In this document: positions 43,522 to 60,176 of the stretch, in pieces
Position numbering within the stretch: the first letter of the stretch is position 1
Layout: each line of letters begins with the position of its first letter
NCBI GenBank assembly: GCA_043797125.1
Contig: JAZDPX010000006.1
Coordinates: 6,921 to 70,920, forward strand
Direction of reading: 5' to 3'
Source: Candidatus Omnitrophota bacterium
GTDB taxonomy: Bacteria; Omnitrophota; Gorgyraeia; JABMRG01; JAFGKX01
DNA: 64,000 nt
Made by a program: the position numbers and the translations under genes
The notes under the pieces: model-generated
Told to the model about the DNA's origin: nothing
Databases searched by the model: none
The model's input: only the letters and a program-made list of their open reading frames with translations

Positions 43522-45771
43522 TCATAAAAAACGCTTGAAAGACTTTAAAAACCAAAAGCCCAAAATAAGGAAAAGCCCTGCAAAATAAAAGATGAGGCTC
43601 GCTATATAGAATCCCGGTTCATAAATGAACTGAACTCGGTGAGTCCCTTTTTCCATCACAATAGATTTAAAAGCCAAATTTGCTTTGTAGACTTTTTGTC
43701 TTTGCTCATCGATAAAAACCTTCCAGTCTTTATCAAAACCATCGCTGTAAAAAAGAAAACAGTCCTCGAGACAATGCACATCCATAAGTATTTCATTCGG
43801 TCCAAACCGTATAACCTCTATTTCGCCTTCTTTGGTGCTAAGATTCTGAATATCGTCCCGAGAGACAAGAATCAAATGAGAATATTTTAATGGCAGGGCC
43901 TCTTCAAGAAAAACAACTTTTTCCAAAATCGCAGAATCAGCTTTTTCCAACTCCACAACTATTACAGGCTGGGGCAACACAACGGCCTTGGGGACAAGGC
44001 GTAACTTCGGGGCCGAAATACCCATCAGGTCAGACTTAACACTAAAAGAAATCCGTTGATTATTAAAAAAATAAAAAAAATTTTTCATTTCATAAAAATG
44101 CGTTGTCACCCAAGGTATATTTGTACTATAGGCCGCATCTTTCTTAAGCATAGCCGGCGAAAAAGCATAAAAAGGGTATTCGGGGCTTATGAAGGCAATT
44201 CTTTTATCCCGGTATACAAAGTCCGTTGGTTGAGTGACGGCATCCTGTCTTCTTGGCATTGTAACAAAAGACAAGACAACTTGGTGAAATAGGGACAAGT
44301 CAACAAAAATAAACAATATAAGAAAAAAAACTTTTAAGGACATTCGGATTTGCGGCTTTGTAAAGGCAAAGAATATTATCGAACTACCTAAAATAAATAT
44401 ACAGGAATTTACATCTGATTGATAAAACAATGGTTCTAAAAAGGACGTGAGAGCTTTTGTTGTAATAGTAGCATAATCCTTAAGAATATTGTATGGAGTA
44501 ATAATGAGAGGATAAACACGAATAAGCTGTCTGTTGGCCAAAATTGCGAAATAACCGATTCCGATAACGATAAGATAAATGGGGCGGATAAAACTATTTA
44601 TTTGCGATAAAAAAGTTTTTTCAAAAAAAATATCTAGGCCAAAACACTCCAAAACGATTAAACAAAAAATAAAAAAAGGGCCAAACGTAAGAGTATTACG
44701 GATAGCGGAAAAAAAAGGCAGAATCTTGCAGCACAAGGTAAAGAGATGCGTGTTATCATTCAACATGATTAAGGCAATGACAACGCAAGCAAAGGCGAAT
44801 CCCCGTTTATAGGGATGGTGGGAATAAATCAAGCCTATACAAACAAAAACCAGAGGAATTAACCCTATATAAAGAAAAGATTCTGACATAAAATGCCAGT
44901 TAAAAAAATGGAGGGCAAAAGAATAAGGAATAAATAGGTTCAAAAAGTCAGCAAAAAAAGCGGGCGCAGCCAAGGGGGCTTCAAATAAACGCGAAGTGGG
45001 CACAACATCATTTTTGTATGTGAGGTAAACAACAAAAATATTTAATGTCAAAAGGCATAAGTAAAATAAAGCCCCCAGCACATAAATAATCCCTTTTTTA
45101 AAAGCGAAAACCTTTCTGACAGAAAGCCCCTTTGTTAAAAAAAGGCAAGCCAGGACAACAGCTAAAGATAAAATGACGTAGGCTCCGTGATAAGAAGAAA
45201 GGGCAATCCCGGAAAAAAAAGTCAAATAAACAAGAAACCTCAGGCGGTATTCCGTTAAAAATTTTAAAGTAGACCACAAAATCCAAGGAAATAAATAAGA
45301 AGATAAAATTAAGGAATTTTGTTTTAAATAGGCGGTGGCCAAAGAAGAAAAAGACAAACTCACAAAAGCGATTACGGCGCTGAGCCTGTATTTTGCAACG
45401 GAAAGAAAAAACGTATAGGCTCCGGCGATAAAAATCATATAACGCAGGAACAGGTCAAAATGATAAATAGTCAGGAAATCTAACCTGAAAACCTTGGCGG
45501 CTAATATCAAAAGGAGAACTTGAGGGTCCAAAAGATGAAGAATATTGATATTTAAAAAGAAGGCCTCGCCGCAGTTCATAAAAGGGTTCCAAAAAGGAAA
45601 AATTCCATGAAGCAAGCTATCCGCAAAATAAGCAAATACGCCGTACCATATAATGGTATCGTGGGTTGCCATCAGCTCCTTTGTCACAAGCAAGCCCCTC
45701 TGCAAAAGAAATAGAGTCGCTCCTACGGCCAGGGCCACGGCCCATGTTTTTATTTGCTGGATTTTTTTCAT
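43522..45771 (-). CDS. YfhO-family large membrane protein (GT-C-like glycosyltransferase)
   Basis: 749 aa. N-terminal motif HGIFPFWNPFMNCGEAF matches the YfhO W-N-P-x-x-F-x-G signature. Many TM helices. Confidence 0.6.
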   Translation of the reverse strand: MKKIQQIKTWAVALAVGATLFLLQRGLLVTKELMATHDTIIWYGVFAYFADSLLHGIFPFWNPFMNCGEAFFLNINILHLLDPQVLLLILAAKVFRLDFLTIYHFDLFLRYMIFIAGAYTFFLSVAKYRLSAVIAFVSLSFSSLATAYLKQNSLILSSYLFPWILWSTLKFLTEYRLRFLVYLTFFSGIALSSYHGAYVILSLAVVLACLFLTKGLSVRKVFAFKKGIIYVLGALFYLCLLTLNIFVVYLTYKNDVVPTSRLFEAPLAAPAFFADFLNLFIPYSFALHFFNWHFMSESFLYIGLIPLVFVCIGLIYSHHPYKRGFAFACVVIALIMLNDNTHLFTLCCKILPFFSAIRNTLTFGPFFIFCLIVLECFGLDIFFEKTFLSQINSFIRPIYLIVIGIGYFAILANRQLIRVYPLIITPYNILKDYATITTKALTSFLEPLFYQSDVNSCIFILGSSIIFFAFTKPQIRMSLKVFFLILFIFVDLSLFHQVVLSFVTMPRRQDAVTQPTDFVYRDKRIAFISPEYPFYAFSPAMLKKDAAYSTNIPWVTTHFYEMKNFFYFFNNQRISFSVKSDLMGISAPKLRLVPKAVVLPQPVIVVELEKADSAILEKVVFLEEALPLKYSHLILVSRDDIQNLSTKEGEIEVIRFGPNEILMDVHCLEDCFLFYSDGFDKDWKVFIDEQRQKVYKANLAFKSIVMEKGTHRVQFIYEPGFYIASLIFYFAGLFLILGFWFLKSFKRFL

Positions 45772-45774
45772 CGC

Positions 45775-46647
45775 CTAAAAATCTTTTACCTCGACGGAAG
45801 TATGGCCAAACTGCTGGAATCGGTTTGTCTTGACTTTTACATCGCAGGGATTGCAGTGGCCAAAAAGCAGGCATTCTCTGAACTTATCATCAACCTGAAA
45901 ATCGGGATCGCATATGTGGCCGATAGGATCAAGGCCCGTATAAAGATCCGCATGACAGCGAAATATATGGCCGGCGCTATCCATTAATAGCTCTGTCGTG
46001 CGGCATAAAACAGCTTTCTTAAACTTCTTGTCGCAGGCACCATTGTACCTGTAGTTGCCGTATAACTTACCTTGAAACTCTCCTAAAAATTCTTTTTCGC
46101 GGAAATCTATACCCAATTTTAAACATTTCTCCCTGGCGCTGACAATGGCGTTCTTATGAGAGGGGTGCGTTACTACCCAGATACCAATGCTAAAATGCGC
46201 GTCTTGCATCCGGAGGACTTTGGCGACTAAATCGTTGAAATCCATTGTTTCGGGATGATAACTGACACGGATAGACGCATAAGGCGCTTTCCTCCTGATG
46301 CGTTGTGGGCTGACTTTCTTGATGAATTCCTTTATATCGAACTGCAGATTGGTCAAGATATCAATATTTAACTCGGGTTTAAGATTATTAATTATATAGA
46401 TAAAATCAGGGTGCAGGCTCGGCTCGCCTCCCTGCAGGGTAACCGGTAAATCGTCCCTTGATATGATGCGGTTTAGCCCTTTAACCCACTCTTGGCCTGA
46501 CATAATCGGGCGTTTGATAGCACTCTGCTGAAAATAATTGATGCAATAACTACACTTTAGATTACACGCAAACGTCAAAAAAAAATGCAATATAATTGTA
46601 GCGAGACGGAATATGTATAGGTTTAAGATTCTCCGAAGCCATAACAA
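45775..46647 (-). CDS. Radical SAM protein with a Cys-rich C-terminal (SPASM/twitch-like) region
   Basis: 290 aa. CNLKCSYC (CxxxCxxC) at aa 27-34. C-terminal cysteines in CDKKFKKAVLC...RCHADL...CDPD...CLLFGHCNPC. Confidence 0.7.
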   Translation of the reverse strand: MLWLRRILNLYIFRLATIILHFFLTFACNLKCSYCINYFQQSAIKRPIMSGQEWVKGLNRIISRDDLPVTLQGGEPSLHPDFIYIINNLKPELNIDILTNLQFDIKEFIKKVSPQRIRRKAPYASIRVSYHPETMDFNDLVAKVLRMQDAHFSIGIWVVTHPSHKNAIVSAREKCLKLGIDFREKEFLGEFQGKLYGNYRYNGACDKKFKKAVLCRTTELLMDSAGHIFRCHADLYTGLDPIGHICDPDFQVDDKFRECLLFGHCNPCDVKVKTNRFQQFGHTSVEVKDF

Positions 46648-46665
46648 AACTCTCTCTTATGAGGT

Positions 46666-47196
46666 TTAATAAAATTCGCTTTTCTTACCCAAAAGGATTA
46701 TTTTTAACAAAACGATTACTTTGGCTGCCCACAACAGGACCGGTTGGCCGATATAGAATGCGTTGTCCTTGACAATCACTTGTCTGTTCTTTAACAAGCG
46801 CGAAAGCCTGCGCTCAACAATTTCCTGGGCGTTATAACGTTTCAATAGTTGAGCCAAAACAAGGCCCTCGGGAGATGCCCTAAGCTCTATTAGAATCCTG
46901 ATGCGCCTGGCTGTCTCGCCCAAATTAATAAAATTAAAATAACAATAAGACAGCGAAATATACGTAATCACATGGACCGCAGTTGCGGCCGCCTGCTTAT
47001 GCCATGCGATAGAATTTAAAAACAAAAAAAAGAAATCAAATAAAAAAATGCATGCCAGCCCGACACCAAAACCCAGAAAAATAGATTTAAGCATGCCAAA
47101 TTTGCTAACAAGCCGATAAGCGCATATTTGACTTATGCTATTCACCGCCAAAGCTATAACAGGAATAACCGTAACAAGATAATTTTTCATAGCCAA
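46666..47196 (-). CDS. Membrane-anchored winged-helix-like protein (paralog of 47199-47681)
   Basis: 176 aa. About 3 N-terminal TM segments, then RRIRILIELRASPEGLVLAQLLKRY...RRLSRLLKNRQVIVKDNAFYIG (helix-turn-helix plus wing pattern), then a C-terminal hydrophobic segment. Confidence 0.4.
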   Translation of the reverse strand: MAMKNYLVTVIPVIALAVNSISQICAYRLVSKFGMLKSIFLGFGVGLACIFLFDFFFLFLNSIAWHKQAAATAVHVITYISLSYCYFNFINLGETARRIRILIELRASPEGLVLAQLLKRYNAQEIVERRLSRLLKNRQVIVKDNAFYIGQPVLLWAAKVIVLLKIILLGKKSEFY

Positions 47197-47198
47197 CG

Positions 47199-47681
47199 CT
47201 ACCCGCCTTTGGGCGCCTTGAGCAAACGGCGAAAGTTAATAAAAATATCTGCCAATAAAACCCCTTTTGGCGTCGGGCGGTATAGCCCCTTATCAAGAAC
47301 AACCATTCCGTCCTTAACTAAATCGTTTAAACGCGGCAGCACGAGCAGCTCATCCGAAAACCCGGCATAAAATTCTTCTTTTGTAAGGCCCAGGGGATAT
47401 GCCTTAGCAATATCCAGGATCATAATAAGCGATGGGCTATCCACCTCAATCGCCGAATAAGAGACTATATAAGCCAATGCCAAGGATGAATAGAACAAAA
47501 CAAGCTGAAAACAGAATGCGGGGTCTTTTCTGAAGCACCATATGCCGACGGATAAAACGCCGAAAAAAATAATTAATAAAACTTTCGTGTGATTTTTTCG
47601 CGGCAGGTAAACTTTCCATATTAGGAAGTGGATTCCGAAAGAAAAAAGAAAAAGAATTGTCCCGTAAATTAAAACCGACAT
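47199..47681 (-). CDS. Membrane-anchored winged-helix-like protein (paralog of 46666-47196)
   Basis: 160 aa. About 3 N-terminal TM segments, then SLIMILDIAKAYPLGLTKEEF...LVLPRLNDLVKDGMVVLDKGLYRPTPKG (wHTH-like). Confidence 0.4.
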   Translation of the reverse strand: MSVLIYGTILFLFSFGIHFLIWKVYLPRKNHTKVLLIIFFGVLSVGIWCFRKDPAFCFQLVLFYSSLALAYIVSYSAIEVDSPSLIMILDIAKAYPLGLTKEEFYAGFSDELLVLPRLNDLVKDGMVVLDKGLYRPTPKGVLLADIFINFRRLLKAPKGG

Positions 47682-47697
47682 TTTGATGCCTTTAACG

Positions 47698-48801
47698 TTA
47701 AATAAAATTTATATGTTTCGGCGGTCTGCCCAAAGGCGCATCCATACAGACATCTTGGTGCTTTAAATCCCATAAAAATTCATTCACTTTATGCTGAAGG
47801 CACAACGTGCCACACATGCATCGTGCGTCAAATTCATCGGAGCCTATGAGGCGCAGCACTTCCCGGTAGCGCTCGCTCTTCCAGATTTCTTTAAAAGATT
47901 TTTCTGTAATATTACCTATATGATATTTTGAGTATCTCTTGTTAAACAACATGCCGCAAGGCGCCACAAGACCTGACCCTGAAAACTGCATAATAAACGC
48001 AGGCCCGTAACAACGGGTGTAGCGGCGTTTTCCGCTGCTTAGGATCTTTGACCATTTCACCGCGACTTCATAACCTTCGCTGGAAATTTTTTGGGCCTCT
48101 TTTAAAATACCCTCGCATTGTTCATATTTTAAATAATCAACACCTAAAGACCCTTTTTCATCGTCGCTACAATGTTTGAAAATCGTATAATCGACCCCCA
48201 GTTCCCTGCCCAGTTTGGCCAACGGTATCACTTGATCAGAAAATGCCGGCAGGAAAACCATCTGAAGTCCGATCGTAACATCTAATTTTAGATTTTTCTT
48301 GATTTGAACGCACTCTCGGATAATGCTGCAGACCTTCTCATAGCAAGAGATGCTGCAACCATGAATCTCTGCGTAGCGTTTTGCTTTAGCCGCGGACATA
48401 TTAAAACGTATATAGGTAAGGGCGGGTAAAATCTCAACCAGCCTCTCTTCTTTTAGAAGGTAACCGTTGGTTCCGACGGCTATATCAAGGCCGTTTGCCT
48501 TACCTCGTAAGATGGCATCGTAAAAATGCGGCGAGCATGTGCTTTCTCCGTCGCTGACAAAGCTGATTGCCTTAACGCCGATTTCGGCCGCATCATCCAA
48601 AAATCTAAAGATGGCGTCCTTGGTCATCTTTTTCTCATCATTAGCCTGCAGCATGCCGTAACAGTAAATGCATCTATACGTGCAGCGGCGCGTTAAGGCG
48701 CAATCTATCGTGACCGGTGCGATGCGCTCGCCTTTTAACCAAGCATCTACGCGCTCTTTATGCCACGCTAATTTTTGTCCATCAAGAATTAAATCGCTCA
48801 A
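47698..48801 (-). CDS. Radical SAM / SPASM-domain enzyme (paralog of 51634-52701)
   Basis: 367 aa. CTYRCIYCYG cluster motif. C-terminal Cys-rich region (CMCGTLC). N-terminus SDLILDGQKLAWHKERVDAWLKGE aligns with SDFFRIDSHKLIFHVDRVNEWLRGK of the paralog. Confidence 0.7.
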   Translation of the reverse strand: MSDLILDGQKLAWHKERVDAWLKGERIAPVTIDCALTRRCTYRCIYCYGMLQANDEKKMTKDAIFRFLDDAAEIGVKAISFVSDGESTCSPHFYDAILRGKANGLDIAVGTNGYLLKEERLVEILPALTYIRFNMSAAKAKRYAEIHGCSISCYEKVCSIIRECVQIKKNLKLDVTIGLQMVFLPAFSDQVIPLAKLGRELGVDYTIFKHCSDDEKGSLGVDYLKYEQCEGILKEAQKISSEGYEVAVKWSKILSSGKRRYTRCYGPAFIMQFSGSGLVAPCGMLFNKRYSKYHIGNITEKSFKEIWKSERYREVLRLIGSDEFDARCMCGTLCLQHKVNEFLWDLKHQDVCMDAPLGRPPKHINFI

Positions 48802-48819
48802 TTATAACCTAATGATGCC

Positions 48820-49599
48820 TTAAAAATTTTTCCTTCTTGCCGCTGTTTGGGAATCGCTGTGAAATTTAGACGTAGAGTCAAATTTTTCTTTTCGCAAGGA
48901 AAAATCTTTCAGCAACCTTAAATAGCCCCTGACAACCTGAAAAAATGACGGAAAGCTCACGGCTTTTGAAACTCCTTTATTCCTGACTCTTACCCTGTAA
49001 GGGACCTCGGCAAAAAGATATCCTTTTTTGACTAACCTGATCAAGATATCCGTCTGAAAAAAGAAACCGCTGGAGTAGACATTCGATTCTTTGAGAATAG
49101 ATTTTCTATAAAGGATGGTGCCGTTAGTATAATTAAAATTCACAAAAAAAGTCGTGTTGATTATAAAACGAAACAAATATGAAAGCGCGTTTCTAAAAAT
49201 AGACCTGACCTCCCTGTTAAAAAGAAATGGTATAACGATATCCACATGCTCCAAGAGCTTGTAATATCGCAAAATTTCTTGAGGATCGTTTTCATTATCC
49301 CCTGGCAGCATAACGATAAAATTGCCTGTAGCTGCATCGACACCCTCCCAGAAAGAAGCGCCGAGGCCCTGTGGCTTAAGATGTTTAAGGATTACTATCT
49401 TCTCGGGATGCTCTCGCGCTTTCTCTTCTGCTATTGCCTGCGTGCGGTCAGCGCTGCCATCATTAATCACAATAATTTCGCCAATAATCCCAAAAATCTC
49501 AAAGGCTTCCAGGGTATCCTTGATAGCCCCTAAAATATTGTGTTCTTCATTAAGGGCCGGCATTATAACGCTCAGCTTATTCCTTTTCTCTGTATTCAA
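48820..49599 (-). CDS. GT2 glycosyltransferase, polyprenyl-phosphate sugar synthase-like (DPM1/GtrB type)
   Basis: 259 aa. LSVIMPALNEEHNI...EIIVINDGSADRT (DXD region). 4-bp overlap with the E1 beta gene. Confidence 0.8.
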   Translation of the reverse strand: MNTEKRNKLSVIMPALNEEHNILGAIKDTLEAFEIFGIIGEIIVINDGSADRTQAIAEEKAREHPEKIVILKHLKPQGLGASFWEGVDAATGNFIVMLPGDNENDPQEILRYYKLLEHVDIVIPFLFNREVRSIFRNALSYLFRFIINTTFFVNFNYTNGTILYRKSILKESNVYSSGFFFQTDILIRLVKKGYLFAEVPYRVRVRNKGVSKAVSFPSFFQVVRGYLRLLKDFSLRKEKFDSTSKFHSDSQTAARRKNF

Positions 49600-50633
49600 A
49601 ACATCTCCTTAACAGACTTGACTATGTCCGTCGCGTTGCGATAAAATGCATCTTCCAGCACCGGGCTGCAAGGCGTGGGCGTATCGGGAAGAGCAACTGT
49701 GCGGATGCCAGATTTAAGATAAGGTCTTATTTTATTGAAAAGGCGCCCTGCCAGAATTTCTGCAGCGCCTGAACTTTGCCAGCCCAGGTCGGCAATCACT
49801 AAACGGCCTGTTTTCTTAACTGATCCTATTACAATATCCTCATCTAATGGATTGAGTGCGCGTAAATCTATAATTTCAATATCGATGCCATCCTGCTTTA
49901 ATACACCAGCAGCTTTCTGGGCCTCCGACACCATTAAAGACAGTGCGACAACCGTCGCATCGCTGCCGGATTTTCTTATGAATCCTTTCCCGATAGGAAT
50001 CAAATATTCGTTTTTTGGAACATGTTGACGCATATCGTAAAGCCAGCGATGTTCAATAAAGACAACAGGATTATTATCGGCGATGCTAGCCAGTAATAAT
50101 CCCTTGGCATCATAAGCGCATGACGGCATAACAACCTTTAGTCCCGGCATATGCATGAATAAAGCGTGAAGGCTCTGGGAGTGCTGAGCTGCCGAACCCC
50201 AGCCTCTACCGATAAGTGCGCGTATAACTAAAGGGACACGCACTTTTCCACCGGACATATAACAAAACTTCGCCGCGTGGTTCAAGATCTGGTCAAAAGA
50301 CAAAGGAATAAAATCCATTCTCATGTGCACAAGAACCGGCCTCATGCCGGCAAGGGCCGCCCCTGTTACAAAACCTGTAAGTGCGTTTTCTGCTATTGGC
50401 GTATCAAAAACCCTACCCTTAAATTCTTTGTGCAGGTTAAGCGTTGAACCAAAAACCCCTCCCGGATCATCTACGCCCTCCCCCATAACAAAAACATTTG
50501 CATCTTTTTTTAATGCCTGAAAAAGGGCTTCTCGTAAGGCCTCCGCATAAGACAATGGCCTTGCCCCTTTTGGCGGCTGGCCTTGTGATAAATCTTCAAC
50601 GGCATTATCAACGGCAATCTTTGTCCATGGCAT
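49596..50633 (-). CDS. 2-oxoacid dehydrogenase E1 component beta subunit-like (transketolase-like Pyr and C-terminal domains)
   Basis: 345 aa. FVMGEGVDDPGGVFGSTLNLHKEFKGRVFDTPIAENALTGFVTGAALAGMRPV is the PDH/acetoin-DH E1 beta signature. No E2/E3 genes nearby. Confidence 0.85.
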   Translation of the reverse strand: MPWTKIAVDNAVEDLSQGQPPKGARPLSYAEALREALFQALKKDANVFVMGEGVDDPGGVFGSTLNLHKEFKGRVFDTPIAENALTGFVTGAALAGMRPVLVHMRMDFIPLSFDQILNHAAKFCYMSGGKVRVPLVIRALIGRGWGSAAQHSQSLHALFMHMPGLKVVMPSCAYDAKGLLLASIADNNPVVFIEHRWLYDMRQHVPKNEYLIPIGKGFIRKSGSDATVVALSLMVSEAQKAAGVLKQDGIDIEIIDLRALNPLDEDIVIGSVKKTGRLVIADLGWQSSGAAEILAGRLFNKIRPYLKSGIRTVALPDTPTPCSPVLEDAFYRNATDIVKSVKEMF

Positions 50634-50635
50634 GA

Positions 50636-51616: not shown

Positions 51617-51633
51617 ATTCTACTTTTTTTGCC

Positions 51634-53642: not shown

Positions 53643-53671
53643 TTTTTCACCTCTATATATATCATCTATAA

Positions 53672-55612
53672 TTATGAACTCAAACGGACTTTTCCTAATA
53701 TCACTCTTCCCAGAGAATCAACCCGCTCATCCTGGCCTACAGGTAAAATCTGGCCGTCGCCCAAAACAAATAGACTCATCTTTACCTCGCAGCTTCCCTG
53801 CATAATGTTGTCGGGAATACTAACATAATGATGTTCTTGGATGACTTCGCCTTCAGGGAATGCATCGGGAGGATAAATCCTATAACCAAAACTATGCATT
53901 TTTTGAAAAATAATATCTCCTTTTGGCCCTAAAAAATTCAGGGAAAGCCCAAGCGGATGCCCAGCTTCACCCAGGCGCTTCCAGTAGTAAACAAAATGAA
54001 TAACGTTTCCAGACGCATTGTGTTCCCTGATGATATCATACCCTAAAAAAGCTATCTTGTCAGCGAAGTTTATATTGAATTTGCTTTTAACAGACAAGTC
54101 CGATCCCGGCTTGCACAATGCATCTGTTTTTGCGCCATCCTTTGTAAATAACACTACATCGTCCCTTGCATCCTGCACGCGCCAGTTCCCGCGCTCAAGA
54201 AAAGTACGGATGTTGGCAGGGGCATCCGGCGGAAAAAAGGAACCAACCATCAAAGACTCATTAAAATCCACCAATACATATTCCAGGCCTTCCGGTGGTA
54301 CGTATTTTGTCTGAGTATACATTTTATACCCCATTGACACCAAGTGCAACGAATAAAGGTCCTTCCTGTTAGCCAGGTGCGGCAAAAATTGAAAAGTGGC
54401 CATTACGGATGCGTTAGGGGGAATACTTTGAACTAATCTCTGCTTCGCCCTAGCCGCATCGTCAATTGAAAATGATCTGACATACTCTCGAATGCGCAGC
54501 TGAGGCGCCTCCAAAAAAAATCCGGCCAGAATAGAGACTGACAAAAAAGCGGCCAAAAAAAAGTAACGATAAGCATGACCAGCTTTTAATCCCAAATTTT
54601 TCTTTAATGTCCATACCGTAGATACGAATATGAAAGGCACAAGTAAGGCCGTATAGTGATAATTAATCTGAGAGTGCGGCCACATCGAGGATAGAAGATT
54701 CTGGGCAAAAATCGGCAAGGTCATCAATAAAACTCCCGGGCTAAAAAATCCCAGAAAACCAACGGGGAGAAAAAGAAAAAGGGGATAAAAATATTTTCCG
54801 CGACTGAAAGCAAAACGCAAAACCGCCAGAGGATGCACCATGGTTGTTTGAAGCATCGCCAGCATAGTGCTGCCTAAGTGGCGGTAATAACTGCTAAAGA
54901 TAAAACCTTCCTGATATAAGTTAGAGTCTTTGGCAAAATACGGAATGACGATTTTAACCGCCAGGAAAAACCATCCTGCGCCTAATAAGAGCGGCGTCAC
55001 AATCCACCGTAAAGACCTTCGCCGCAGAATACCATAGAAACCAAACATAAAAACCACAAGGCTGACATTCTCTTTGCACAAAAGAGCCAAAAGAATAAAG
55101 ATCATGAACTTTTTAAAATTTCCCCTTTCAAAATAAAGAATCGCAAAAAAGAGAAAAAATATTTCATATATTTCAAAATGGGTTTCAAAAAGATTGATGA
55201 ATCCTATGGAAGGATACAATAAATAAGCAAGGCTGACCGCCAGCGCAAAGGGTCTATCAAGTTTAGATGCGGCAAAAAGGTATAAAGGATAGGCAGCCAA
55301 CCCCAGGAAAAGGCTTTGCAAAAAAAGCAGCGTCAGAGGATGTTGAAAAACCGCGTAAATAGGGATTATAAAAAAAATGATTAGATACAGGTGGGCCCCA
55401 AAGATATTTTGTTCCAAAAAAGGATAATATAACAGCCGGCCATGAGCGCTGTTGTAGAGAATAGTCAAATCACTGGCGAAATCCCAGTCAAAATAGCCGA
55501 AGGCATAATATTTTAAAAAAGAGAGGTAGCAAAAAATGACGACATGAGCAGCAATCATCAGCCAAATGATTTTATCGCAAGTCACCTTCGGTATTTTACT
55601 GTTTTTATCCAT
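53672..55612 (-). CDS. Large polytopic membrane protein (tentatively DUF2079-like, putative GT-C glycosyltransferase) with a C-terminal soluble domain
   Basis: The ORF track gives 53672-55678; the likely start is the internal MDKNSK, which abuts the stop of the upstream gene. About 12 TM helices over 400 aa, then a ~250-aa beta-rich C-terminal domain. The AHGRLLYYPFLEQNIFGAHLYL motif is in the first loop. Confidence 0.45.
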   Translation of the reverse strand: MDKNSKIPKVTCDKIIWLMIAAHVVIFCYLSFLKYYAFGYFDWDFASDLTILYNSAHGRLLYYPFLEQNIFGAHLYLIIFFIIPIYAVFQHPLTLLFLQSLFLGLAAYPLYLFAASKLDRPFALAVSLAYLLYPSIGFINLFETHFEIYEIFFLFFAILYFERGNFKKFMIFILLALLCKENVSLVVFMFGFYGILRRRSLRWIVTPLLLGAGWFFLAVKIVIPYFAKDSNLYQEGFIFSSYYRHLGSTMLAMLQTTMVHPLAVLRFAFSRGKYFYPLFLFLPVGFLGFFSPGVLLMTLPIFAQNLLSSMWPHSQINYHYTALLVPFIFVSTVWTLKKNLGLKAGHAYRYFFLAAFLSVSILAGFFLEAPQLRIREYVRSFSIDDAARAKQRLVQSIPPNASVMATFQFLPHLANRKDLYSLHLVSMGYKMYTQTKYVPPEGLEYVLVDFNESLMVGSFFPPDAPANIRTFLERGNWRVQDARDDVVLFTKDGAKTDALCKPGSDLSVKSKFNINFADKIAFLGYDIIREHNASGNVIHFVYYWKRLGEAGHPLGLSLNFLGPKGDIIFQKMHSFGYRIYPPDAFPEGEVIQEHHYVSIPDNIMQGSCEVKMSLFVLGDGQILPVGQDERVDSLGRVILGKVRLSS

Positions 55613-55614
55613 TA

Positions 55615-57075
55615 TTAAAATAGGTTTCTGAAAAAGGACTTGAGTAAACTCATGCTTAGGCGCGTTAAAGAAGACCACTCCTGCAGGCTTAAATACCAGC
55701 GCTCAGGAAGGTAAAACCATCCTGCAGGGCCAACGCGTTTTACCAAAAGCCTAAAAACCTTTTTAGGCCTTAGGGAAAAAAACAGATTGGCTCTGACAAT
55801 ATCCCTTTTTAAAATTTTCTCATCGCAGTCCACAGGCACATAGGGCAGTCTTGTCTCTGTAAGAGAATCGCTTACAAGCGAGCCGCAGGCATTCAAATTA
55901 GACCAATCTTTTTCCGCAAAAATACGTCCTTCTTTCTTGGCCATTTCATAGAGTTGCGTGCCGGGATACGGAGTCGCGTTGTTAAACCTCACATAATCTA
56001 AATCCATCTGCCTGGCCATGCGGTAAGCGCTTAAGCGATCAGCTCTTGTCTCTGTCGGGAGGCCGAAAATAAAAGTCCCTGAAACGCCGAGTCCGTGTTT
56101 TTTGACCAGCTTCACGGCCTCGATGTTCTGGCGCACAGTTTCTTTTTTATTGAGTAAAACCATTAACCTTTCCGAAGAGGTCTCAAAACCGAAATTAATC
56201 AAACGGAATCCGGCCTTTCTAAGCAGGCTCAAGATTTGGCCATTGACGGCATCTGCTCTTGTCTGACAATCAAACGTCACCTTCTCATGTAGCTTACTGT
56301 TAATAATTCCTTCGCATAGTTGAATAACTCTTTGTTGATTAGCGGTGAAGTTATCGTCAACAAAATTGATATGTATTTGATGATATTTATTTACGAGAAG
56401 ATCTATATCTCTTAGCACTGCTTCTGCTGGAAAATAGCGGTATCTCTGTCCGGAAATATTTCGTTGACTGCAGAATATACAATCGTAGGGGCAGCCTCTG
56501 GAGCTGGCGATAAAACCAAAATTGTACCTGTTAGGCTTATTATTAAAAAGATGGTATGGGAAAGGGGCAAGAACGCTTAAATCAGGCAATTCGGCATTAG
56601 GATTATGAATAATCCGGCCATTGGTTCTATAAGAAAGGCCGCAAATACGAGTTACATCCCTGTTTTCTTTAATGGCCTCGCAAAACTCAAGCAGCGTATT
56701 CTCTGCCTCTCTTCTAAGTACATAATCAATATCCCTGTTGCCCAATACCTCATCGGGCATAACCGTCGGATGAATGCCACCCATTACTATTTTTGATTCC
56801 GGGTAAAGGCCCTTGATTATCCCGACTATTTCATAGCTTCTTTTTGCGCAAGCAGTCAACGTTGAAATTCCAAAAAGATAAGGAGGGGAAAATAATGCAG
56901 CGCTCTTTCTAATTAGCTCTTCGGATATAGGGTTAATGTGCTCATCAAGGACGCTAACCTTATGCCCTTTTGAAAGCAGAGAACCGGCCAAATACCCTAA
57001 TCCTATAGGGACGCTTAAAGGGACGTAACGCTCAAATATGCCAAATTTTGTTGATTTCGGATTGATTAAAATCAT
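55615..57075 (-). CDS. B12-binding-domain radical SAM enzyme (class B; probable methyltransferase or tailoring enzyme)
   Basis: 486 aa. N-terminal cobalamin-binding Rossmann domain (MILINPKST...SVPIGLGYLAGSLLSKGHKV), then CPYDCIFCSQ, the CxxxCxxC radical SAM motif. Confidence 0.8.
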   Translation of the reverse strand: MILINPKSTKFGIFERYVPLSVPIGLGYLAGSLLSKGHKVSVLDEHINPISEELIRKSAALFSPPYLFGISTLTACAKRSYEIVGIIKGLYPESKIVMGGIHPTVMPDEVLGNRDIDYVLRREAENTLLEFCEAIKENRDVTRICGLSYRTNGRIIHNPNAELPDLSVLAPFPYHLFNNKPNRYNFGFIASSRGCPYDCIFCSQRNISGQRYRYFPAEAVLRDIDLLVNKYHQIHINFVDDNFTANQQRVIQLCEGIINSKLHEKVTFDCQTRADAVNGQILSLLRKAGFRLINFGFETSSERLMVLLNKKETVRQNIEAVKLVKKHGLGVSGTFIFGLPTETRADRLSAYRMARQMDLDYVRFNNATPYPGTQLYEMAKKEGRIFAEKDWSNLNACGSLVSDSLTETRLPYVPVDCDEKILKRDIVRANLFFSLRPKKVFRLLVKRVGPAGWFYLPERWYLSLQEWSSLTRLSMSLLKSFFRNLF

Positions 57076-57110: not shown

Positions 57111-59138
57111 CTAAACTTTGTGTAACGATTTAACCCTTTTTGGCTCCTTAAGCAATCTCTTTGCTTCCTTTATAAACATTTTTACCTGTTCGTCTGTGGG
57201 GTCTAACAATAATGCCGTCTCAAATTCCCTCAATGCCTCCCTAAAACGATTAAGGCGCGTGTAGGTTACGCCTAAGTTTTTATGGACATCAATATCAAGC
57301 GGACTAATCTTTGCCGCCTTTAAAAAGGCGTCAAATGCCTCGTCGTAATTGCCCAGTTTCGATAACGCAATACCTTTGGCATTTTGAACCATAACATTCA
57401 TTGGGCATATATCTTCTGCTATTTTTATAGCCAGCAGCGTATTTTTTGGCATATCAAGATCATAAAAAAATCTTGCCATGTTAATATAAGAGGCGGGATA
57501 ATATGCTTCTTTTTTGGCTATTTTTATGAGATTTTGCGACGGCTCTATTTTAAAATTTTCTAATTTAATCCTGTTTTTCTTTATCATACCTTTAAGTTGA
57601 GGGATATTGCGCGCAAATATAACAGAGTTTACATCCAAAAATACCAATTCCCAGTTTTTGCTGTGATATAGAAAATTAAAAAGTTCTTTAGAAATACCGG
57701 ATATCTCTGCGAAATATAATACAACAAAACCTACATTTTTCTCTTTGGCAAGTTGGTCTATTTTTTCTGGATTCATAAAATAGCTGTGGTATTCTTCGAT
57801 AAAATCATCACCGTAGACCTCTGTCCTCCCATCTATAAAAACCTTATAATCAGGGAAGAGCTTGCGCACCATATAAGCGCCGCAGTTAAAATGATTAAAT
57901 ATATTGACATGCGCCTTGGAATCTTTTATAAAATTTGCGCAAGCTTCAGGGCAAATAAGTTCATTGACTCCAAAAACAATGCTTTTTGCGTCTCCTTTTA
58001 AATTATATATATACTTTGTCCTTAAAAAGCCGTTTGCTTCGCTTGTGCAACCCAATATTATAAGCAAACAAGCAACTGTTGCAATCAGATTACAATACAA
58101 AGGTTTTATTGTCGGAATATCATAATTTAAAATTTTTATCCTTATTCCGTTAAATTCTTTTAAGTTAAATAAAGCAAACATACCGCTAGATAAGGCGAAT
58201 ATTGCAACGTGCCTTCTGGCTTTCAAAAAAAGCGCAAGGCAGATAAAAAAAACAATTATGTCAAATATGCATATCCTCTTTATGTTTAAAAGCAGGCTTG
58301 AGAAAAAAATAAAAAGGAGCAAAAAAAGGCAAAGATCTCTCCCGAAAACTACATCAAATAAGTTAGTCGGCCTTAATTCCGCTATAAACTTGAATGCAAA
58401 CTCATCTTCTTTTTGCAGCGTTGATGACATAACCCTAAATGGATAGCTTAGGCCTTCTAAGAAATTTGGGTTAACTAAACAGGCAAGTATTAATAAAAAT
58501 AAAAGCCATGTAAGCCTTTTTAAATTGTTATAACTTATTTTATTCTCATTCCAGAAAAATGGTAATGGGACATTGCGTTCTATAATCTTGGATATAAGGT
58601 ATAAAAATAAAATAACAGGGCCTGTTATAAAGTAGCCGTGGATATTAACCCATAAAATTTGAAGCGGTATAAGTAAAAATATACGCCTTTTATCATAATG
58701 TTCCTTTATAAGATAAAGAAATATGCCGGTAAACAGCAGAGATACGATATCAGGCCGGCAAAATAGCCTCGCGCGCATTAACTGAAATGAGGCAAAAATA
58801 ACAAGCAAAGAAAGGATAAAATATTTGTTTCGCCTTGCTATTAAATATAAAATAAAAAGAAGTGCTGACATGACAATAAAACATAAAATAACCAGCCCGC
58901 TAAAACCCGCTATTTTAAAAATAAGGTATGTGAAAAGCTGGAAAAGCCATTCATGGTCAACCCATTTCTTTCCTTCAATCATATAGGAATAAAGCTGCTC
59001 GGTGGGAACTCTAAGGTTCTGGAAAATCCATTCGCCGGTTTTAATATGAAGGTTTATATCATATTCCTGGATTTGCACCAAAGCAAACAAGCTTGCAATA
59101 AAACAAATATATATATAAACTGCCTTTTTTAGATACAT
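57111..59138 (-). CDS. Polytopic membrane protein with C-terminal TPR repeats (TMTC/PMT-like GT-C protein O-glycosyltransferase candidate)
   Basis: 675 aa. About 11 TM helices. Acidic loop-1 motif KKWVDHEWLFQ after TM1. The C-terminal ~130 aa are TPR-like (AYYPASYINMARFFYDL...NYDEAFDAFLKAAKISP...FREALREFETALLLDP). Lies directly downstream of the two pseudopilin genes. Confidence 0.5.
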   Translation of the reverse strand: MYLKKAVYIYICFIASLFALVQIQEYDINLHIKTGEWIFQNLRVPTEQLYSYMIEGKKWVDHEWLFQLFTYLIFKIAGFSGLVILCFIVMSALLFILYLIARRNKYFILSLLVIFASFQLMRARLFCRPDIVSLLFTGIFLYLIKEHYDKRRIFLLIPLQILWVNIHGYFITGPVILFLYLISKIIERNVPLPFFWNENKISYNNLKRLTWLLFLLILACLVNPNFLEGLSYPFRVMSSTLQKEDEFAFKFIAELRPTNLFDVVFGRDLCLFLLLFIFFSSLLLNIKRICIFDIIVFFICLALFLKARRHVAIFALSSGMFALFNLKEFNGIRIKILNYDIPTIKPLYCNLIATVACLLIILGCTSEANGFLRTKYIYNLKGDAKSIVFGVNELICPEACANFIKDSKAHVNIFNHFNCGAYMVRKLFPDYKVFIDGRTEVYGDDFIEEYHSYFMNPEKIDQLAKEKNVGFVVLYFAEISGISKELFNFLYHSKNWELVFLDVNSVIFARNIPQLKGMIKKNRIKLENFKIEPSQNLIKIAKKEAYYPASYINMARFFYDLDMPKNTLLAIKIAEDICPMNVMVQNAKGIALSKLGNYDEAFDAFLKAAKISPLDIDVHKNLGVTYTRLNRFREALREFETALLLDPTDEQVKMFIKEAKRLLKEPKRVKSLHKV

Positions 59139-59141
59139 AAT

Positions 59142-59200: not shown

Positions 59201-59635
59201 TTAGTTCCAGGTTATTTCCATATTTGCAGAACCGTTAGTAGTAGCGACCATAGTAACAAACGCAGTTTTACCGCCAACTATGGGCGTATAAATAGTGCCA
59301 TTTCGCACAGCGGTAATTGTGATATTCACAGCCCTGTCTGCAGCGCTTCCTGCCGGCCAAGAATAAGAAAATAAGCTTTTATTCTTATCATCAATAATAC
59401 CGCCGATTGCAGTTTCTATTTCATAAATGTTATCAGCGGCAGCAGTGGGAAAGGCACCATTATGTTCAAGCTTATACGCCATTAGGCCTGATCTCATTGA
59501 CCCTAAAACCATTCTGCCCTCTCCTGTCCTGATTCTTTCAATCAAGCTGCCTAGTTGCGGCAGGAGCAAAGTAACTAAAATGCCTATTAAAATAACGACT
59601 AGTAAAAGTTCTATTAATGTAAAACCCTTTTTCAT
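59201..59635 (-). CDS. Type II secretion pseudopilin / type IV pilin-like protein
   Basis: 144 aa. Class III signal and N-methylation motif MKKGFTLIELLLVVILIGILVTLLLPQ (G-F-T-L-I-E). Confidence 0.8.
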   Translation of the reverse strand: MKKGFTLIELLLVVILIGILVTLLLPQLGSLIERIRTGEGRMVLGSMRSGLMAYKLEHNGAFPTAAADNIYEIETAIGGIIDDKNKSLFSYSWPAGSAADRAVNITITAVRNGTIYTPIVGGKTAFVTMVATTNGSANMEITWN

Positions 59636-59672
59636 ACATATCCCCCTTTTTTTATATTATAATAAAGCTAAA

Positions 59673-60077
59673 TTATGTCCACGAAACATTCATATCTGCT
59701 GCGCCATTTGCTTCAATCACCATATATATATGGGATTGCTTGCCTGTCCATGTACCATTACGATTGGCATTTACAAACATTCTATCTGCATTGCCGCCCG
59801 CTGGCCAACTATAATCAAACAAACTCCTGGTATCATCAGCTATATCGCCTAAAGTGCCTTCTATTGCCGCTAGACCAATGTTAGCAGCATTAGGAAATGT
59901 GCCTTCATCCATGCGATACGCCATTAACGCAGCTCTCATGGCGCCCAAGACCTGCTTTGCTTCAGCCAATCTCGCTCTTTCTTGCATACCTGATATTTGT
60001 GGTAATAATAATGTAGCTAATATACCTATTAAAATAACTACGATTAAAACTTCAATCAATGTAAAACCTCTTTTCAT
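59673..60077 (-). CDS. gspG: Major pseudopilin GspG-like / type IV pilin-like protein
   Basis: The ORF track gives 59673-60140; the true start is likely the internal MKRGFTLIEVLIVVILIGILATLLLPQ (prepilin motif). About 134 aa. Confidence 0.75.
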   Translation of the reverse strand: MKRGFTLIEVLIVVILIGILATLLLPQISGMQERARLAEAKQVLGAMRAALMAYRMDEGTFPNAANIGLAAIEGTLGDIADDTRSLFDYSWPAGGNADRMFVNANRNGTWTGKQSHIYMVIEANGAADMNVSWT

Positions 60078-60176
60078 ATAAAACCTCCATGCCTCGCCAA
60101 CAGGCGGGCTTATTTTTACTTTGTATATTATTATACACAAAGTATGTATGATGTCAACTATTTTACTATAAAATTT

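Follow-up and report, generated by a model that had tools for sequence, protein, structure and literature searches.

Gene Content of the Locus

The window analyzed here is a 64-kb stretch of a Candidatus Omnitrophota metagenome-assembled genome. All genes listed in a first-pass annotation of this region were present on the minus strand where it had placed them, and its gene content was confirmed (Table 1). The 13-gene pseudopilin-linked operon claimed there is in fact two separable units, a pilus operon (unit A) and a glycan cassette (unit B). The family and fold assignments, synteny, insertion, and distribution across genomes described below are observed directly. Unit A, which extends upstream of the operon originally proposed, comprises a secretin, PilB/GspE, PilC/GspF, two pilins, and a TPR membrane protein, in that order. 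Unit B spans ~15 kb and contains 12 genes, from the B12-binding radical SAM (B12-rSAM) through the YfhO-like gene, together with a convergent PMT_2 gene. Spacing within the cassette is −4 to 35 nt, while pilin B and the TPR gene are 62 nt apart. The packing is tight; translational coupling had been proposed previously, and true 4-nt overlaps occur at two junctions only (GT9/SPASM1 and E1β/GT2). Literature searches on these gene combinations gave nothing relevant and no description of the module or its radical-SAM/thiamine core, in keeping with the initial impression that this is not a described system.

Table 1. Features of the pilus operon, the glycan cassette, and their surroundings (window coordinates).
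Feature	Position	Strand	Basis
Secretin, C-terminal part (gene runs past window end)	63115-64000	-	Pfam Secretin 146 bits
PilB/GspE-type assembly ATPase, MshEN c-di-GMP-binding N-terminal domain	61402-63102	-	T2SSE 465 bits + MshEN
PilC/GspF platform protein	60177-61391	-	T2SSF 178 bits
Candidate pilin promoter, sigma-70 consensus TTGACA-16-TATAAT	60130-60157	-	12/12 match, just upstream of pilin A
Pilin A, small GspG-like type IV pilin or pseudopilin	59673-60077	-	N_methyl motif
Pilin B, paralog of pilin A	59201-59635	-	N_methyl motif + alignment
GT-C-fold membrane protein, periplasmic alpha/beta domain, C-terminal TPRs; conserved last pilus-operon gene	57111-59138	-	AlphaFold model
Class B (B12-binding) radical SAM, first cassette gene	55615-57075	-	B12-binding 63 bits + Radical_SAM 76 bits
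DUF2079 polytopic membrane protein	53672-55678	-	PF09852 213 bits
GT9-family (heptosyltransferase-like) GT-B enzyme	52698-53642	-	PF01075 57.6 bits
rSAM-SPASM 1 (SPASM1), anchor of conserved core	51634-52701	-	Radical_SAM + SPASM
Stand-alone ThDP-dependent E1 alpha	50636-51616	-	E1_dh 240 bits
E1 beta	49596-50633	-	Transket_pyr + Transketolase_C
GT2, polyprenyl-phosphate glycosyltransferase type, 259 a.a.	48820-49599	-	Glycos_transf_2 76 bits
rSAM-SPASM 2, most conserved protein of the module	47698-48801	-	Radical_SAM + SPASM
sm1, three TM helices + cytoplasmic winged-helix domain	47199-47681	-	AF2 pLDDT 87
sm2, second small membrane protein, architecture as sm1	46666-47196	-	2-3 TM segments
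rSAM3, third small radical SAM	45775-46647	-	Radical_SAM 37.6 bits
YfhO-like polytopic membrane protein, last cassette gene	43522-45771	-	PF09586 27.5 bits, cutoff 28.5
PMT_2-family GT-C membrane protein, convergent with cassette, within insertion	42380/42419-43504	+	PF13231 45 bits
ilvD, ancestral neighbor of TPR gene, far edge of insertion	40215-41897	-	ILVD_EDD 403 bits
Prepilin peptidase PilD, flanked by aroE and aroC	33661-34425	-	A24_N_bact + Peptidase_A24

The Pilus Operon and Its Terminal Gene

Judged by sequence, unit A is a type IV pilus/T2SS-like operon. The truncated secretin aligns with residues 222–527 of the secretin in the related locus L087 (tblastn, nt. 63118–63999). The assembly ATPase matches both PilB (638 bits) and GspE (617 bits) slightly under the equivalog cutoffs and shares 65–66% identity with the syntenic gene of L087, L088, and L091, and the platform protein is 54–60% identical to its syntenic counterparts. 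Pilin A can be aligned with the pilins of L087, L088, and L091–L093, and no conserved Ser/Thr site was obvious in the aligned pilin orthologs. The candidate promoter is a consensus match only, in a region whose total site count is not above shuffle expectation. The position of pilD is the same in L171 and L172.

The last gene of unit A is conserved and encodes a predicted membrane enzyme of GT-C fold, not modelled before, that also has a periplasmic domain and TPRs. The TPR repeats (residues 576–655) are all that Pfam recognizes, with no match in the membrane part, for which ~8 TM segments were predicted by hydropathy. The GT-C-like character suggested in the first-pass annotation was borne out by structure prediction, not HMMs: the AlphaFold model (pLDDT 92) adopts a GT-C fold with STT3, DPY19, and PglB as the closest structures, upon which ~460 residues superpose. 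An acidic residue after TM1 (IxDxD, D27), E254, R309, D436, and R438 are invariant; such charged positions, both acidic and basic, are spread over the N-terminal membrane region and the following domain. The noted layout of pilin genes followed directly by this gene is conserved, with one or more pilins just upstream in all seven loci carrying an ortholog of at least 37% identity; in five of these, secretin, GspE, and GspF are also visible within the available stretch. Pilin linkage is absent from all ~77 paralogs at ≤36% identity.

We regard the TPR protein, whose model is nearest to protein glycosyltransferases, as a candidate pilin or protein glycosyltransferase. Working in the periplasm, it would transfer a glycan from a polyprenyl-(di)phosphate-linked donor to the pilins or to some other protein associated with the pilus. 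The order of pilin then GT-C is shared with TfpW, itself of GT-C type, whereas PglL, PilO, and TfpO, which had also been cited as parallels, are Wzy_C enzymes, for which a Pfam profile search gave no match in the window; only the TfpW analogy holds.

It is rather doubtful that this protein is instead a factor for pilus or secretin assembly whose TPRs act like the pilotin and docking proteins PilF, PilW, or TadD, without enzymatic action on pilins, and that the cassette decorates only LPS or a lipid-anchored glycan. The TPR domain does resemble TPR proteins of the pilotin type, PilW and TadD among them, the region matching PilW (E 8e-5) and MamA-type TPRs, some homologs carry the JGI name "Tfp pilus assembly protein PilF", and a distant secretin lies ~5 kb away in seven paralog loci. 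However, the extensive superposition on STT3, DPY19, and PglB and the invariant charged residues are hard to explain for a scaffold, and paralogs occur in housekeeping contexts without secretins.

Enzymes of the Glycan Cassette

The B12-rSAM has BchE and HpnJ as its best NCBIfam matches, both far under cutoffs, and orthologs with 64–69% identity in L005, L009, L012, and L060. For SPASM1, homologs at E ≤ 1e-10 number more than 5000 and are led by Omnitrophota sequences; among solved structures, its family profile is closest to BlsE (E 3e-14), MoaA, and DesII, of which BlsE and DesII are sugar and nucleoside rSAMs. The second rSAM-SPASM retains 60–81% identity across phyla, including Lachnospiraceae, finds nothing stronger in the PDB than a weak match to PqqE, and is 29% identical to SPASM1 (E 9e-50), in line with the paralogy first proposed. 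Orthologs of rSAM3 occur in 15 loci (54–75% identity).

The E1 subunits fall under the equivalog cutoffs (PDH E1α, 322 bits, cutoff 394; E1β, 303 bits, cutoff 321), and no E2 or E3 gene was found near the pair. In avilamycin and paulomycin, two-carbon branches are added to sugars by E1 pairs that have no E2 or E3 partner, and the paulomycin proteins Pau11/12 measure 325/345 a.a., compared with 326/345 a.a. here (PMC4425429). In half of the related loci, a split transketolase replaces the E1 pair. The C2 unit donated by an E1 would differ from that of a transketolase, which counts against our preferred reading.

The GT9 lies far under the cutoffs of the WaaC, WaaF, and WaaQ equivalogs and is always directly upstream of SPASM1 in Omnitrophota-type loci. 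The GT2 had been annotated as a polyprenyl-phosphate glycosyltransferase type, and its best matches are of this kind (ArnC in NCBIfam; ArnC, Pyrococcus DPMS, and GtrB in the PDB); no TM segment was predicted by hydropathy. The DUF2079 protein (~8 TM segments), of a family which we take to be a GT-C clan member in Pfam, has orthologs in 7 cassette loci. The protein initially called YfhO (~12 TM segments) matches that family in its C-terminal part only and just under the cutoff, with orthologs in L005, L009, L012, and L014 (42–47% identity). In L008 and L010, homologs of the PMT_2 protein (30–31% identity) are encoded next to the cassette. Because the DUF2079 and PMT_2 matches are clear, the periplasmic glycosylation logic of GT2 plus GT-C enzymes outlined in the first-pass annotation is present; none of the membrane proteins of the locus was placed in a transporter family. 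As for the two wHTH-like membrane proteins, the AF2 model of sm1 contains a winged helix, but sm1 and sm2 share no significant similarity. Foldseek matched sm1 to wHTH regulators only (best E 0.025), none of its 65 homologs has a Pfam domain, and sm2 shows a weak GtrA match (20.6 bits against a cutoff of 50). The two occur together in 8 loci.

Distribution and Insertion of the Cassette

The cassette core, consisting of an rSAM-SPASM, a ThDP enzyme (E1αβ or split transketolase), and a second rSAM-SPASM, occurs across five or more phyla, is common among anaerobes, and usually lies beside HldE/GmhA/GmhB-like heptose genes. Of 72 non-redundant loci, the ThDP enzyme is present in 62 (31 E1, 31 split transketolase), HldE/GmhA-like genes in 36, and a GT9 in 24. 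GT9 and HldE/GmhA-like genes never occur together (25 GT9 only, 39 HldE/GmhA only, 0 both), an exclusivity that tracks taxonomy and so may be phylogenetic rather than functional. In 11 Firmicutes loci, the core lies among flagellin, Maf, FliW, CsrA, PseB, and DegT genes (flagellin glycosylation islands), which suggests that it serves surface-filament glycosylation there. These islands, showing the core sugar used on proteins in other phyla, speak against decoration of LPS alone, although the GT9 and ArnC-like GT2 are classic LPS enzymes, Lip_A_acyltrans and MGDG_synth genes adjoin the core in L001 and L007, and the window itself holds an LPS core locus.

It is highly improbable that the rSAM-SPASM and small winged-helix proteins act on a peptide, in a RiPP-like pathway, or on a lipid instead of a sugar, with the winged helices as RRE-like elements for substrate recognition. 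The best-known role of SPASM enzymes is peptide maturation, many NCBIfam matches here are to maturases, sm1 does contain a winged-helix domain, and the B12-rSAM matches the lipid-related HpnJ and a ladderane-type family. Nevertheless, every maturase match is far under cutoff, no precursor-peptide gene is evident, SPASM1 has BlsE and DesII among its best solved relatives, and the conserved neighbors are genes for sugar-nucleotide enzymes and glycosyltransferases (HldE/GmhA/GmhB-like, epimerase/dehydratase, TylF, DegT, GT2, GT9, and GT-C).

In four of the seven TPR ortholog loci (L091, L093, L171, and L172), the TPR gene is followed directly by ilvD-ilvB-ilvN-ilvC-leuA-aroE-pilD-aroC, the same order as beyond the cassette in the window, and the ilvD promoter is conserved. 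The cassette was seen between the TPR gene and ilvD in this genome alone, and in L087 the site is occupied by another glycan cassette, made up of a Wzx-like flippase, GT2, and Bac_transf; no direct repeats or mobility genes were found flanking the insertion. Adjacent pilin, GspE, or secretin genes were found in none of the 86 SPASM1 cassette loci; in one of them, L026, a GspF gene lies at a distance and a pilin-like ORF occupies the opposite strand. The full cassette recurs in L005, L009, L012, L013, and L060 with unrelated flanks (e.g., ParB, NDK/PEPCK). Given the four genomes with ilvD directly after the TPR gene and the 86 loci without pilin linkage, pseudopilin synteny is therefore lost for the cassette only and kept for the TPR GT-C, and the claim that the 12 genes following the TPR gene belong to a conserved pilin system is not supported.

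The cassette starts 35 nt after the TPR gene, on the same strand and with no terminator-like site in the gap, and its co-transcription and functional coupling with the pilins are possible in this organism. This close abutment favors the single integrated system first envisaged, in which the cassette makes a heavily tailored polyprenyl-linked sugar that the GT-C/TPR protein and the other GT-Cs attach to the two pilins, as do the resemblance of the TPR protein to protein glycosyltransferases, the other glycan cassette in L087 (as in glycosylation islands), the Firmicutes flagellin islands, and the TMTC-like GT-C/TPR protein that ends the cassette in other Omnitrophota and is absent here. We nonetheless consider such a system unlikely, given that no cassette locus elsewhere is pilin-linked, that the pilin-GT-C pair has no adjoining glycan genes in four of seven ortholog loci, that the cassette has three GT-C genes of its own, and that the juxtaposition occurs in a single genome. 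Our preferred reading, with a probability of roughly 0.6, is that unit A carries a pilin-glycosylating GT-C candidate and that unit B is a heptose-type sugar-tailoring cassette inserted behind it, the pilin link being best read as a property of the TPR GT-C and not of the cassette.

Proposed Sugar Pathway

The cassette is best read as tailoring a heptose-type sugar and delivering it via the GT9 and via the GT2 plus GT-C enzymes; from the above, we infer all substrates, chemistry, and acceptors, for unit B and the GT-C/TPR enzyme alike. A heptose-type starting sugar is proposed because the LPS core locus in the window contains two further GT9 genes and related loci contain HldE/GmhA/GmhB-like genes. 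No gmhA, hldE, or gmhB was found in the window, so that the case for heptose in Omnitrophota is drawn from the GT9 and from other phyla. SPASM1 would activate the sugar, with C-H abstraction or oxidation to a keto sugar as the probable route, and the second rSAM-SPASM, rSAM3, and the B12-rSAM may process it further (epimerization, deoxygenation, or C-methylation). The GT9 would transfer a sugar at the cytoplasmic face, and the TM-less GT2 would load a sugar onto polyprenyl phosphate, perhaps with the aid of sm1 and sm2, for periplasmic transfer to envelope acceptors by the DUF2079, YfhO-like, and PMT_2 proteins. In Ca. Scalindua, the module also includes a TylF-type O-methyltransferase and a protein with a full YfhO match, and the sm1-sm2-rSAM trio is present there as well.

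Organization of the Gene Row

The pilin-adjacent gene row is one single run of co-directional, tightly packed minus-strand genes, and almost all of the gene labels given in the first-pass annotation were borne out by Pfam and NCBIfam scans (see the table of coordinates). Upstream of the two pilin genes, the row continues with PilC/GspF, PilB/GspE, and a secretin cut by the window end; together with the pilins and the TPR membrane protein that follows them, these form a pilus operon. The next 12 genes, from a B12-binding radical SAM (rSAM) enzyme to a YfhO-like protein (43522–57075), and a convergent PMT_2 gene are here termed the cassette. The B12-binding rSAM carries B12-binding + Radical_SAM domains, and the two rSAM-SPASM enzymes (SPASM1 and SPASM2) carry Radical_SAM + SPASM and share 29% identity (E 9e-50). 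A Candidatus Omnitrophota MAG encodes a protein with 100% identity to SPASM1. The DUF2079 protein is presumably a GT-C enzyme, DUF2079 being, as we take it, a member of the Pfam GT-C clan. Orthologs of the YfhO-like protein are also weak for YfhO, while a full YfhO match is present in the corresponding module of Ca. Scalindua. An Rfam scan of the window returned a tRNA only, with no riboswitch.

Coordinates of the features discussed (window positions; the last five rows give positions within the named related locus)
Feature	Position	Strand	Support or remark
Promoter upstream of pilin A	60130–60157	minus	12/12 sigma-70 consensus
N_methyl pilins (two)	59673–60077, 59201–59635	minus	Pfam/NCBIfam
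TPR membrane protein, 675 aa	57111–59138	minus	HMM matches to C-terminal TPRs only
B12-binding rSAM		minus	Pfam/NCBIfam
DUF2079		minus	213 bits, above Pfam gathering score
GT9	52698–53642	minus	Pfam/NCBIfam
SPASM1	51634–52701	minus
E1 alpha/beta pair	49596–51616	minus	Pfam/NCBIfam
GT2		minus	Pfam/NCBIfam
SPASM2	47698–48801	minus
Small membrane protein sm1	47199–47681	minus	within cassette
Small membrane protein sm2	46666–47196	minus	within cassette
Third rSAM (rSAM3)	45775–46647	minus	within cassette
YfhO-like	43522–45771	minus	PF09586, 27.5 bits vs. cutoff 28.5, last ~58 residues only
PMT_2			convergent with cassette; 45 bits, above Pfam gathering score
Hairpin, then T-run	42348–42373		strong
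29-nt inverted repeat	42053–42081 / 42184–42212		90% complementary, 102 nt apart
Small junction ORF	42064–42309	plus	no Pfam match
Small junction ORF	41997–42269	minus	no Pfam match
Promoter upstream of ilvD	42001–42028	minus	12/12 sigma-70 consensus
ilvD 5′ leader	about 41885–41975	minus	repeated motif
PilD	33661–34425	minus	prepilin peptidase
Lipid A/LPS core locus	13265–21831	minus	several genes
WaaA (Kdo transferase)	20551–21831	minus
LpxK	19345–20370	minus
Lip_A_acyltrans + ELM1-like fusion	17433–19394	minus
GT4-GT9 fusion	15339–17432	minus
GT4	14239–15342	minus
GT9 (LPS locus)	13265–14242	minus
tRNA	12529–12602	plus	Rfam
leuS	10002–12524
GH94-family glycoside phosphorylase	7455–9986
Stop-free frame, ≥2245 aa	3–6737	minus	runs off window start
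525–532 aa protein gene, L088	8314–9891
525–532 aa protein gene, L091	4138–5724
525–532 aa protein gene, L171	488–2086
525–532 aa protein gene, L172	163–1749
11-TM + TPR protein gene, L005	16789–18720

The Pilin Link Is Confined to One Gene

The first-pass annotation had read the pilins and the genes that follow them as one pseudopilin-linked 13-gene glycosylation system. The pairing of a pseudopilin with a GT-C gene is real, being kept at all seven loci that encode homologs of the TPR protein at ≥37% identity (L087, L088, L091, L092, L093, L171, and L172), with secretin, GspE, and/or GspF visible within the sequence covered at five of them, but it is confined to that one gene. In each of the seven, the TPR gene lies downstream of a pilin gene, the position typical of TfpW, and none of ~77 paralogs at ≤36% identity adjoins pilins. 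At four of these loci, an opposite-strand gene encoding a 525–532 aa protein with ~10 TM segments and no Pfam match lies between the pilin and the TPR gene; it is missing from the window, L087, and L093.

For the cassette, the synteny with pseudopilins is not kept in relatives. Our survey was anchored on SPASM1 and began with three neighbourhoods; it was then extended to 80 loci, taken from genomes that represent their species, which were compared to the window by tblastn and clustering of all ORFs. Pilin, GspE, or secretin genes lie beside the cassette in none of the 86 SPASM1 loci, and the single 13-gene system is not supported. The complete cassette recurs in the Omnitrophota loci L005/6, L009, L012, L013, and L060 (partly in L011, L014, and L032) in the order B12-rSAM, YfhO, DUF2079, GT9, SPASM1, E1a, E1b, GT2, SPASM2, sm1, sm2, rSAM3, with unrelated flanks, such as ParB and, at the opposite end, NDK/PEPCK. 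The single exception-like locus, in Desulfobacterales, has a distant GspF and an opposite-strand pilin-like ORF. A prepilin-motif search by regular expression gave six matches, all at ~10.5–12.5 kb in loci of the transketolase type (L023, L047, L048, L051, L059, and L082). Since their positions match that of the gene for the transketolase N-terminal part, they were treated as false positives. We regard the tailoring cassette as an independent module that has landed beside the pilin–GT-C pair in this genome, and the pilin link, over-merged in the earlier reading, belongs to one GT-C/TPR gene. That the cassette product reaches the pilins here is unlikely.

The Cassette as an Insertion beside the Pilus Operon

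In L091, L093, L171, and L172, ilvD directly follows the TPR gene (74% identity to the ilvD of the window in L091; 63% in L093, over the first 68 residues only). Given this adjacency, the ~15 kb between the two genes in the window (57075 to about 42040) is an insertion relative to these relatives; besides the 12 cassette genes, it includes PMT_2 and a short junction. After ilvD come ilvB, ilvN, ilvC, leuA, aroE, PilD, and aroC, in the same order as in the window beyond the cassette, where PilD lies between aroE and aroC, ~23 kb from the pilins; the ilv-leuA-aroE-pilD-aroC order is kept in L171 and L172. Neither direct repeats nor mobility genes flank the insertion, and its base composition is not distinctive. 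At the same site, L087 carries a different glycan cassette comprising a Wzx-like flippase, methyltransferases, a GT2, and Bac_transf.

Perfect sigma-70 consensus promoters lie upstream of both pilin A and ilvD, the latter conserved in place in L091 and L093. The inverted repeat and the hairpin lie in the junction that separates the ilvD promoter from PMT_2, at one edge of the insertion; the two small ORFs are also located there. Within the ilvD leader, GATGATCGCAGAT occurs as a repeated motif along with its inverted copy, ATCTGTGATCATC, both of which are missing from the matching leaders of L091 and L093 by alignment.

Predicted Fold of the TPR Membrane Protein

Residues 1–556 of the TPR protein showed no Pfam match at E ≤ 10, and none of 147 homologs of its membrane domain carries a Pfam domain in that part. 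An AlphaFold2 model built with 52 homologs as input (pLDDT 92, pTM 0.91) combines a helical, polytopic membrane domain with an alpha/beta domain and the TPRs, i.e., the membrane fold plus periplasmic/luminal domain of GT-C enzymes. Foldseek concurs, and the model places the protein in the GT-C fold, nearest to the protein-modifying members STT3, DPY19, and PglB. Directly after the first TM helix (residues 2–20), an IxDxD motif contains the invariant D27; E254, R309, D436, and R438 are also invariant in the family. By hhalign, the DUF2079, YfhO-like, TMTC-like, and TPR-protein families show no relation beyond the TPRs, and a common GT-C origin is not demonstrable at the sequence level.

One standing alternative is that the TPR part acts non-catalytically, in the manner of a pilotin, given its similarity to PilW and TadD and the secretins found at a distance near seven paralogs. 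These paralogs (L099, L102, L103, L128, L129, L158, and L169; ~28–32% identity) have a secretin-like gene ~4–5 kb downstream, 26–32% identical to the secretin of the window, which suggests a wider association of the family with secretins. A different protein with 11 TM segments and TPRs, TMTC/PMT_2-like and with an FIWDD first-loop motif, accompanies the cassette in other Omnitrophota (L005, L013, L020, and L031); it is tied to the TPR protein of the window via TPRs alone and is absent from the window's cassette.

Family Assignments of the Cassette Enzymes

Every cassette protein fell below NCBIfam equivalog level, and the rSAM enzymes reached no characterised subfamily at that level. The best solved relatives of the SPASM1 profile are BlsE, MoaA, and DesII, enzymes whose substrates are nucleoside or nucleotide sugars. 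The GT2 matched Glycos_transf_2 (76 bits), with ArnC as its top NCBIfam match (AglJ and PpgS were also listed) and ArnC (E 1.7e-12), DPMS (6e-11), and GtrB (9e-7) in the PDB. As all equivalog cutoffs were missed, this protein, which has no TM segment, is assigned at the family level only, as a putative polyprenyl-phosphate glycosyltransferase. The GT9 domain (57.6 bits) matched in the C-terminal half only; judging from its profile scores, the product is a GT9 member and not a Waa equivalog (TIGR02195, 48.6 vs. 134.6; TIGR02193, 40.7 vs. 185.3).

The E1 pair was likewise rejected as the E1 of a pyruvate dehydrogenase complex (E1a, 322 vs. 394 bits; E1b, 303 vs. 321), and no E2 or E3 is present among the cassette genes or in the immediate flanks. 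It is a stand-alone alpha/beta pair within a sugar-biosynthesis cluster, as in AviB/Pau-type systems. Against models for the small, four-TM GtrA and ArnE/F proteins (GtrA, EamA/SMR), sm2 scored 20.6 bits for GtrA (cutoff 50) and sm1 gave no match. The sm1 model (pLDDT 87) has three TM helices and a winged helix, and no function is assignable to it because its Foldseek neighbours, winged-helix regulators only, were non-significant. BLASTP gave no significant similarity between sm1 and sm2.

Distribution of the Cassette Core

Across 72 non-redundant SPASM1 loci of at least 9 kb, a ThDP enzyme occupies the same position in 62, being an E1 pair in 31 and a split transketolase in 31, and a second SPASM enzyme is present in 40. 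SPASM2 is 60–81% identical, even in Lachnospiraceae, and sm1, sm2, and an rSAM travel together. The core, two rSAM-SPASM enzymes around the ThDP enzyme, is 45–80% identical across Omnitrophota, Bacillota, Desulfobacterota, Elusimicrobiota, and Planctomycetota; it adjoins heptose-nucleotide genes and occurs in flagellin glycosylation islands. Half of the loci (36/72) carry HldE-like, GmhA-like, and often GmhB-like genes with an NAD epimerase/dehydratase, the HldE-like protein having a reversed domain order (nucleotidyltransferase, then PfkB kinase), and 24/72 carry a GT9. Just upstream of SPASM1, GT9 and the HldE/GmhA-like genes use the same slot, and among L001–L086 they occur in 25 and 39 loci, respectively, with both in none. 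Eleven Firmicutes loci lie amid flagellin, Maf, FliW, CsrA, PseB-like, and DegT genes, neighbours that mark them as flagellin glycosylation islands. In Ca. Scalindua, the module comprises HldE-like, SPASM, split transketolase, TylF-type O-methyltransferase, SPASM, sm1, sm2, rSAM-SPASM, full YfhO, and GT2. The presence of the core in a cultured Lachnospiraceae isolate (L072, Lachnospiraceae bacterium XBB1006) makes it testable.

Comparison with Known Glycosylation Systems

In pilin glycosylation of the TfpW type, as in the group IV pilins of Pseudomonas aeruginosa, the GT-C transferase gene lies directly downstream of the pilin gene. The window shares this layout, a polyprenyl-phosphate-linked donor would apply, and the donor-synthesis genes need not adjoin, as in the four relatives with ilvD next. 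The likeness to TfpW is one of layout; the family described here differs in its C-terminal TPR domain, has no Pfam model, and has STT3, DPY19, and PglB as its nearest structures. The first-pass comparison to PglL/PilO/TfpO fails, given that no protein of the region matched Wzy_C, leaving only the TfpW-type analogy. A known O-antigen or capsule locus was also considered and rejected, since Wzy, Wzz, and Wzy_C are all absent and the cassette lacks an initiating phosphoglycosyl transferase.

With the three-component systems GtrB/GtrA/GtrC, CsbB/GtcA/YfhO, ArnC/ArnEF/ArnT, and PpgS/Rv3632/Rv3779, the cassette shares an ArnC/DPMS/GtrB-like GT2, GT-C proteins (DUF2079, PMT_2, and YfhO-like), and two adjoining small membrane proteins. 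However, the latter belong to neither GtrA nor ArnE/F, and the cassette has three GT-Cs where one is usual and encloses an E1 pair, a GT9, and four radical SAM enzymes.

AviB1/AviB2 and Pau11/Pau12 are E1 alpha/beta pairs that add a two-carbon branch to a keto sugar (PMC4425429). The cassette pair resembles them in lying in a sugar cluster without E2 or E3 and in size (326/345 aa, compared to 325/345 aa for Pau11/12; PMC4425429), a likeness of size and context. Those pairs work in antibiotic pathways of aerobic actinomycetes, alongside the non-heme iron partner AviO2, whereas the cassette has two rSAM-SPASM enzymes and occurs in anaerobes, and half of the related loci swap the E1 pair for a split transketolase.

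Related loci also resemble the ADP-heptose pathway with its GT9 heptosyltransferases, and flagellin glycosylation islands of the Maf/Pse type, with GmhA-, HldE-, and GmhB-like genes, GT9 in Omnitrophota, and Firmicutes loci amid flagellin, Maf, FliW, CsrA, PseB, and PseC. They differ from heptose and nonulosonic acid pathways in the reversed HldE-like domain order and in that all matches fall below equivalog cutoffs. We know of no counterpart of the rSAM/ThDP core in those pathways.

Proposed Chemistry and Its Implications

Based on the precedent of the AviB1/B2 and Pau11/12 pairs, we infer a sequence of steps in which a heptose-type sugar would receive a C2 unit from the ThDP enzyme, with anaerobic C–H activation (oxidation or epimerisation) around that step by the rSAM-SPASM enzymes and further tailoring by the B12-rSAM and rSAM3. 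GT9 would act as a cytoplasmic transferase, GT2 would load a sugar onto polyprenyl phosphate, and DUF2079, YfhO-like, and PMT_2 proteins would serve as periplasmic transferases. Speculatively, sm1 and sm2 may, with an rSAM, tether the soluble enzymes to a membrane substrate. The organism probably uses heptose, given the lipid A/LPS core locus with two more GT9 domains (making the cassette GT9 the third in the window), yet no gmhA or hldE is present in the window, where tblastn with HldE/GmhA/GmhB/epimerase-like proteins found nothing.

The overall logic of a polyprenyl-P-sugar synthase with GT-C enzymes, the heptose genes, and E1-type branching are already known. Neither the rSAM/ThDP/rSAM core nor the GT-C/TPR family of the pilus operon reached any curated equivalog or Pfam model, and the core probably encodes new anaerobic sugar chemistry. 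A search of the full-text literature on rSAM enzymes with transketolase and heptose, on rSAM enzymes in flagellin glycosylation, and on DUF2079 found no description of the module. In the fullest reading, which we hold to be quite improbable (probability about 0.15), the rSAM-SPASM/ThDP/rSAM-SPASM core would use anaerobic radical chemistry to turn a heptose nucleotide into a new type of two-carbon-branched or chain-extended (C9) sugar for surface filaments, and the GT-C/TPR family, encoded at the pilus-operon end beside a glycan-cassette hot spot, would attach glycans to pilins as a new family of pilin glycosyltransferases. If true, anaerobes of at least five phyla would decorate filaments with this sugar, flagellin in Firmicutes and type IV-like pilins here. 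Apart from this reading, the GT-C/TPR family offers a concrete candidate for glycosylating pilins in the Omnitrophota, a phylum of nanobacteria that are largely uncultured and may depend on hosts, and for which pili are considered important.

Other Features of the Window

The stop-free frame at the window start, with a strong AT skew (−0.23 to −0.27), looks like a giant gene typical of Omnitrophota. Following it, the GH94-family glycoside phosphorylase gene adjoins leuS.
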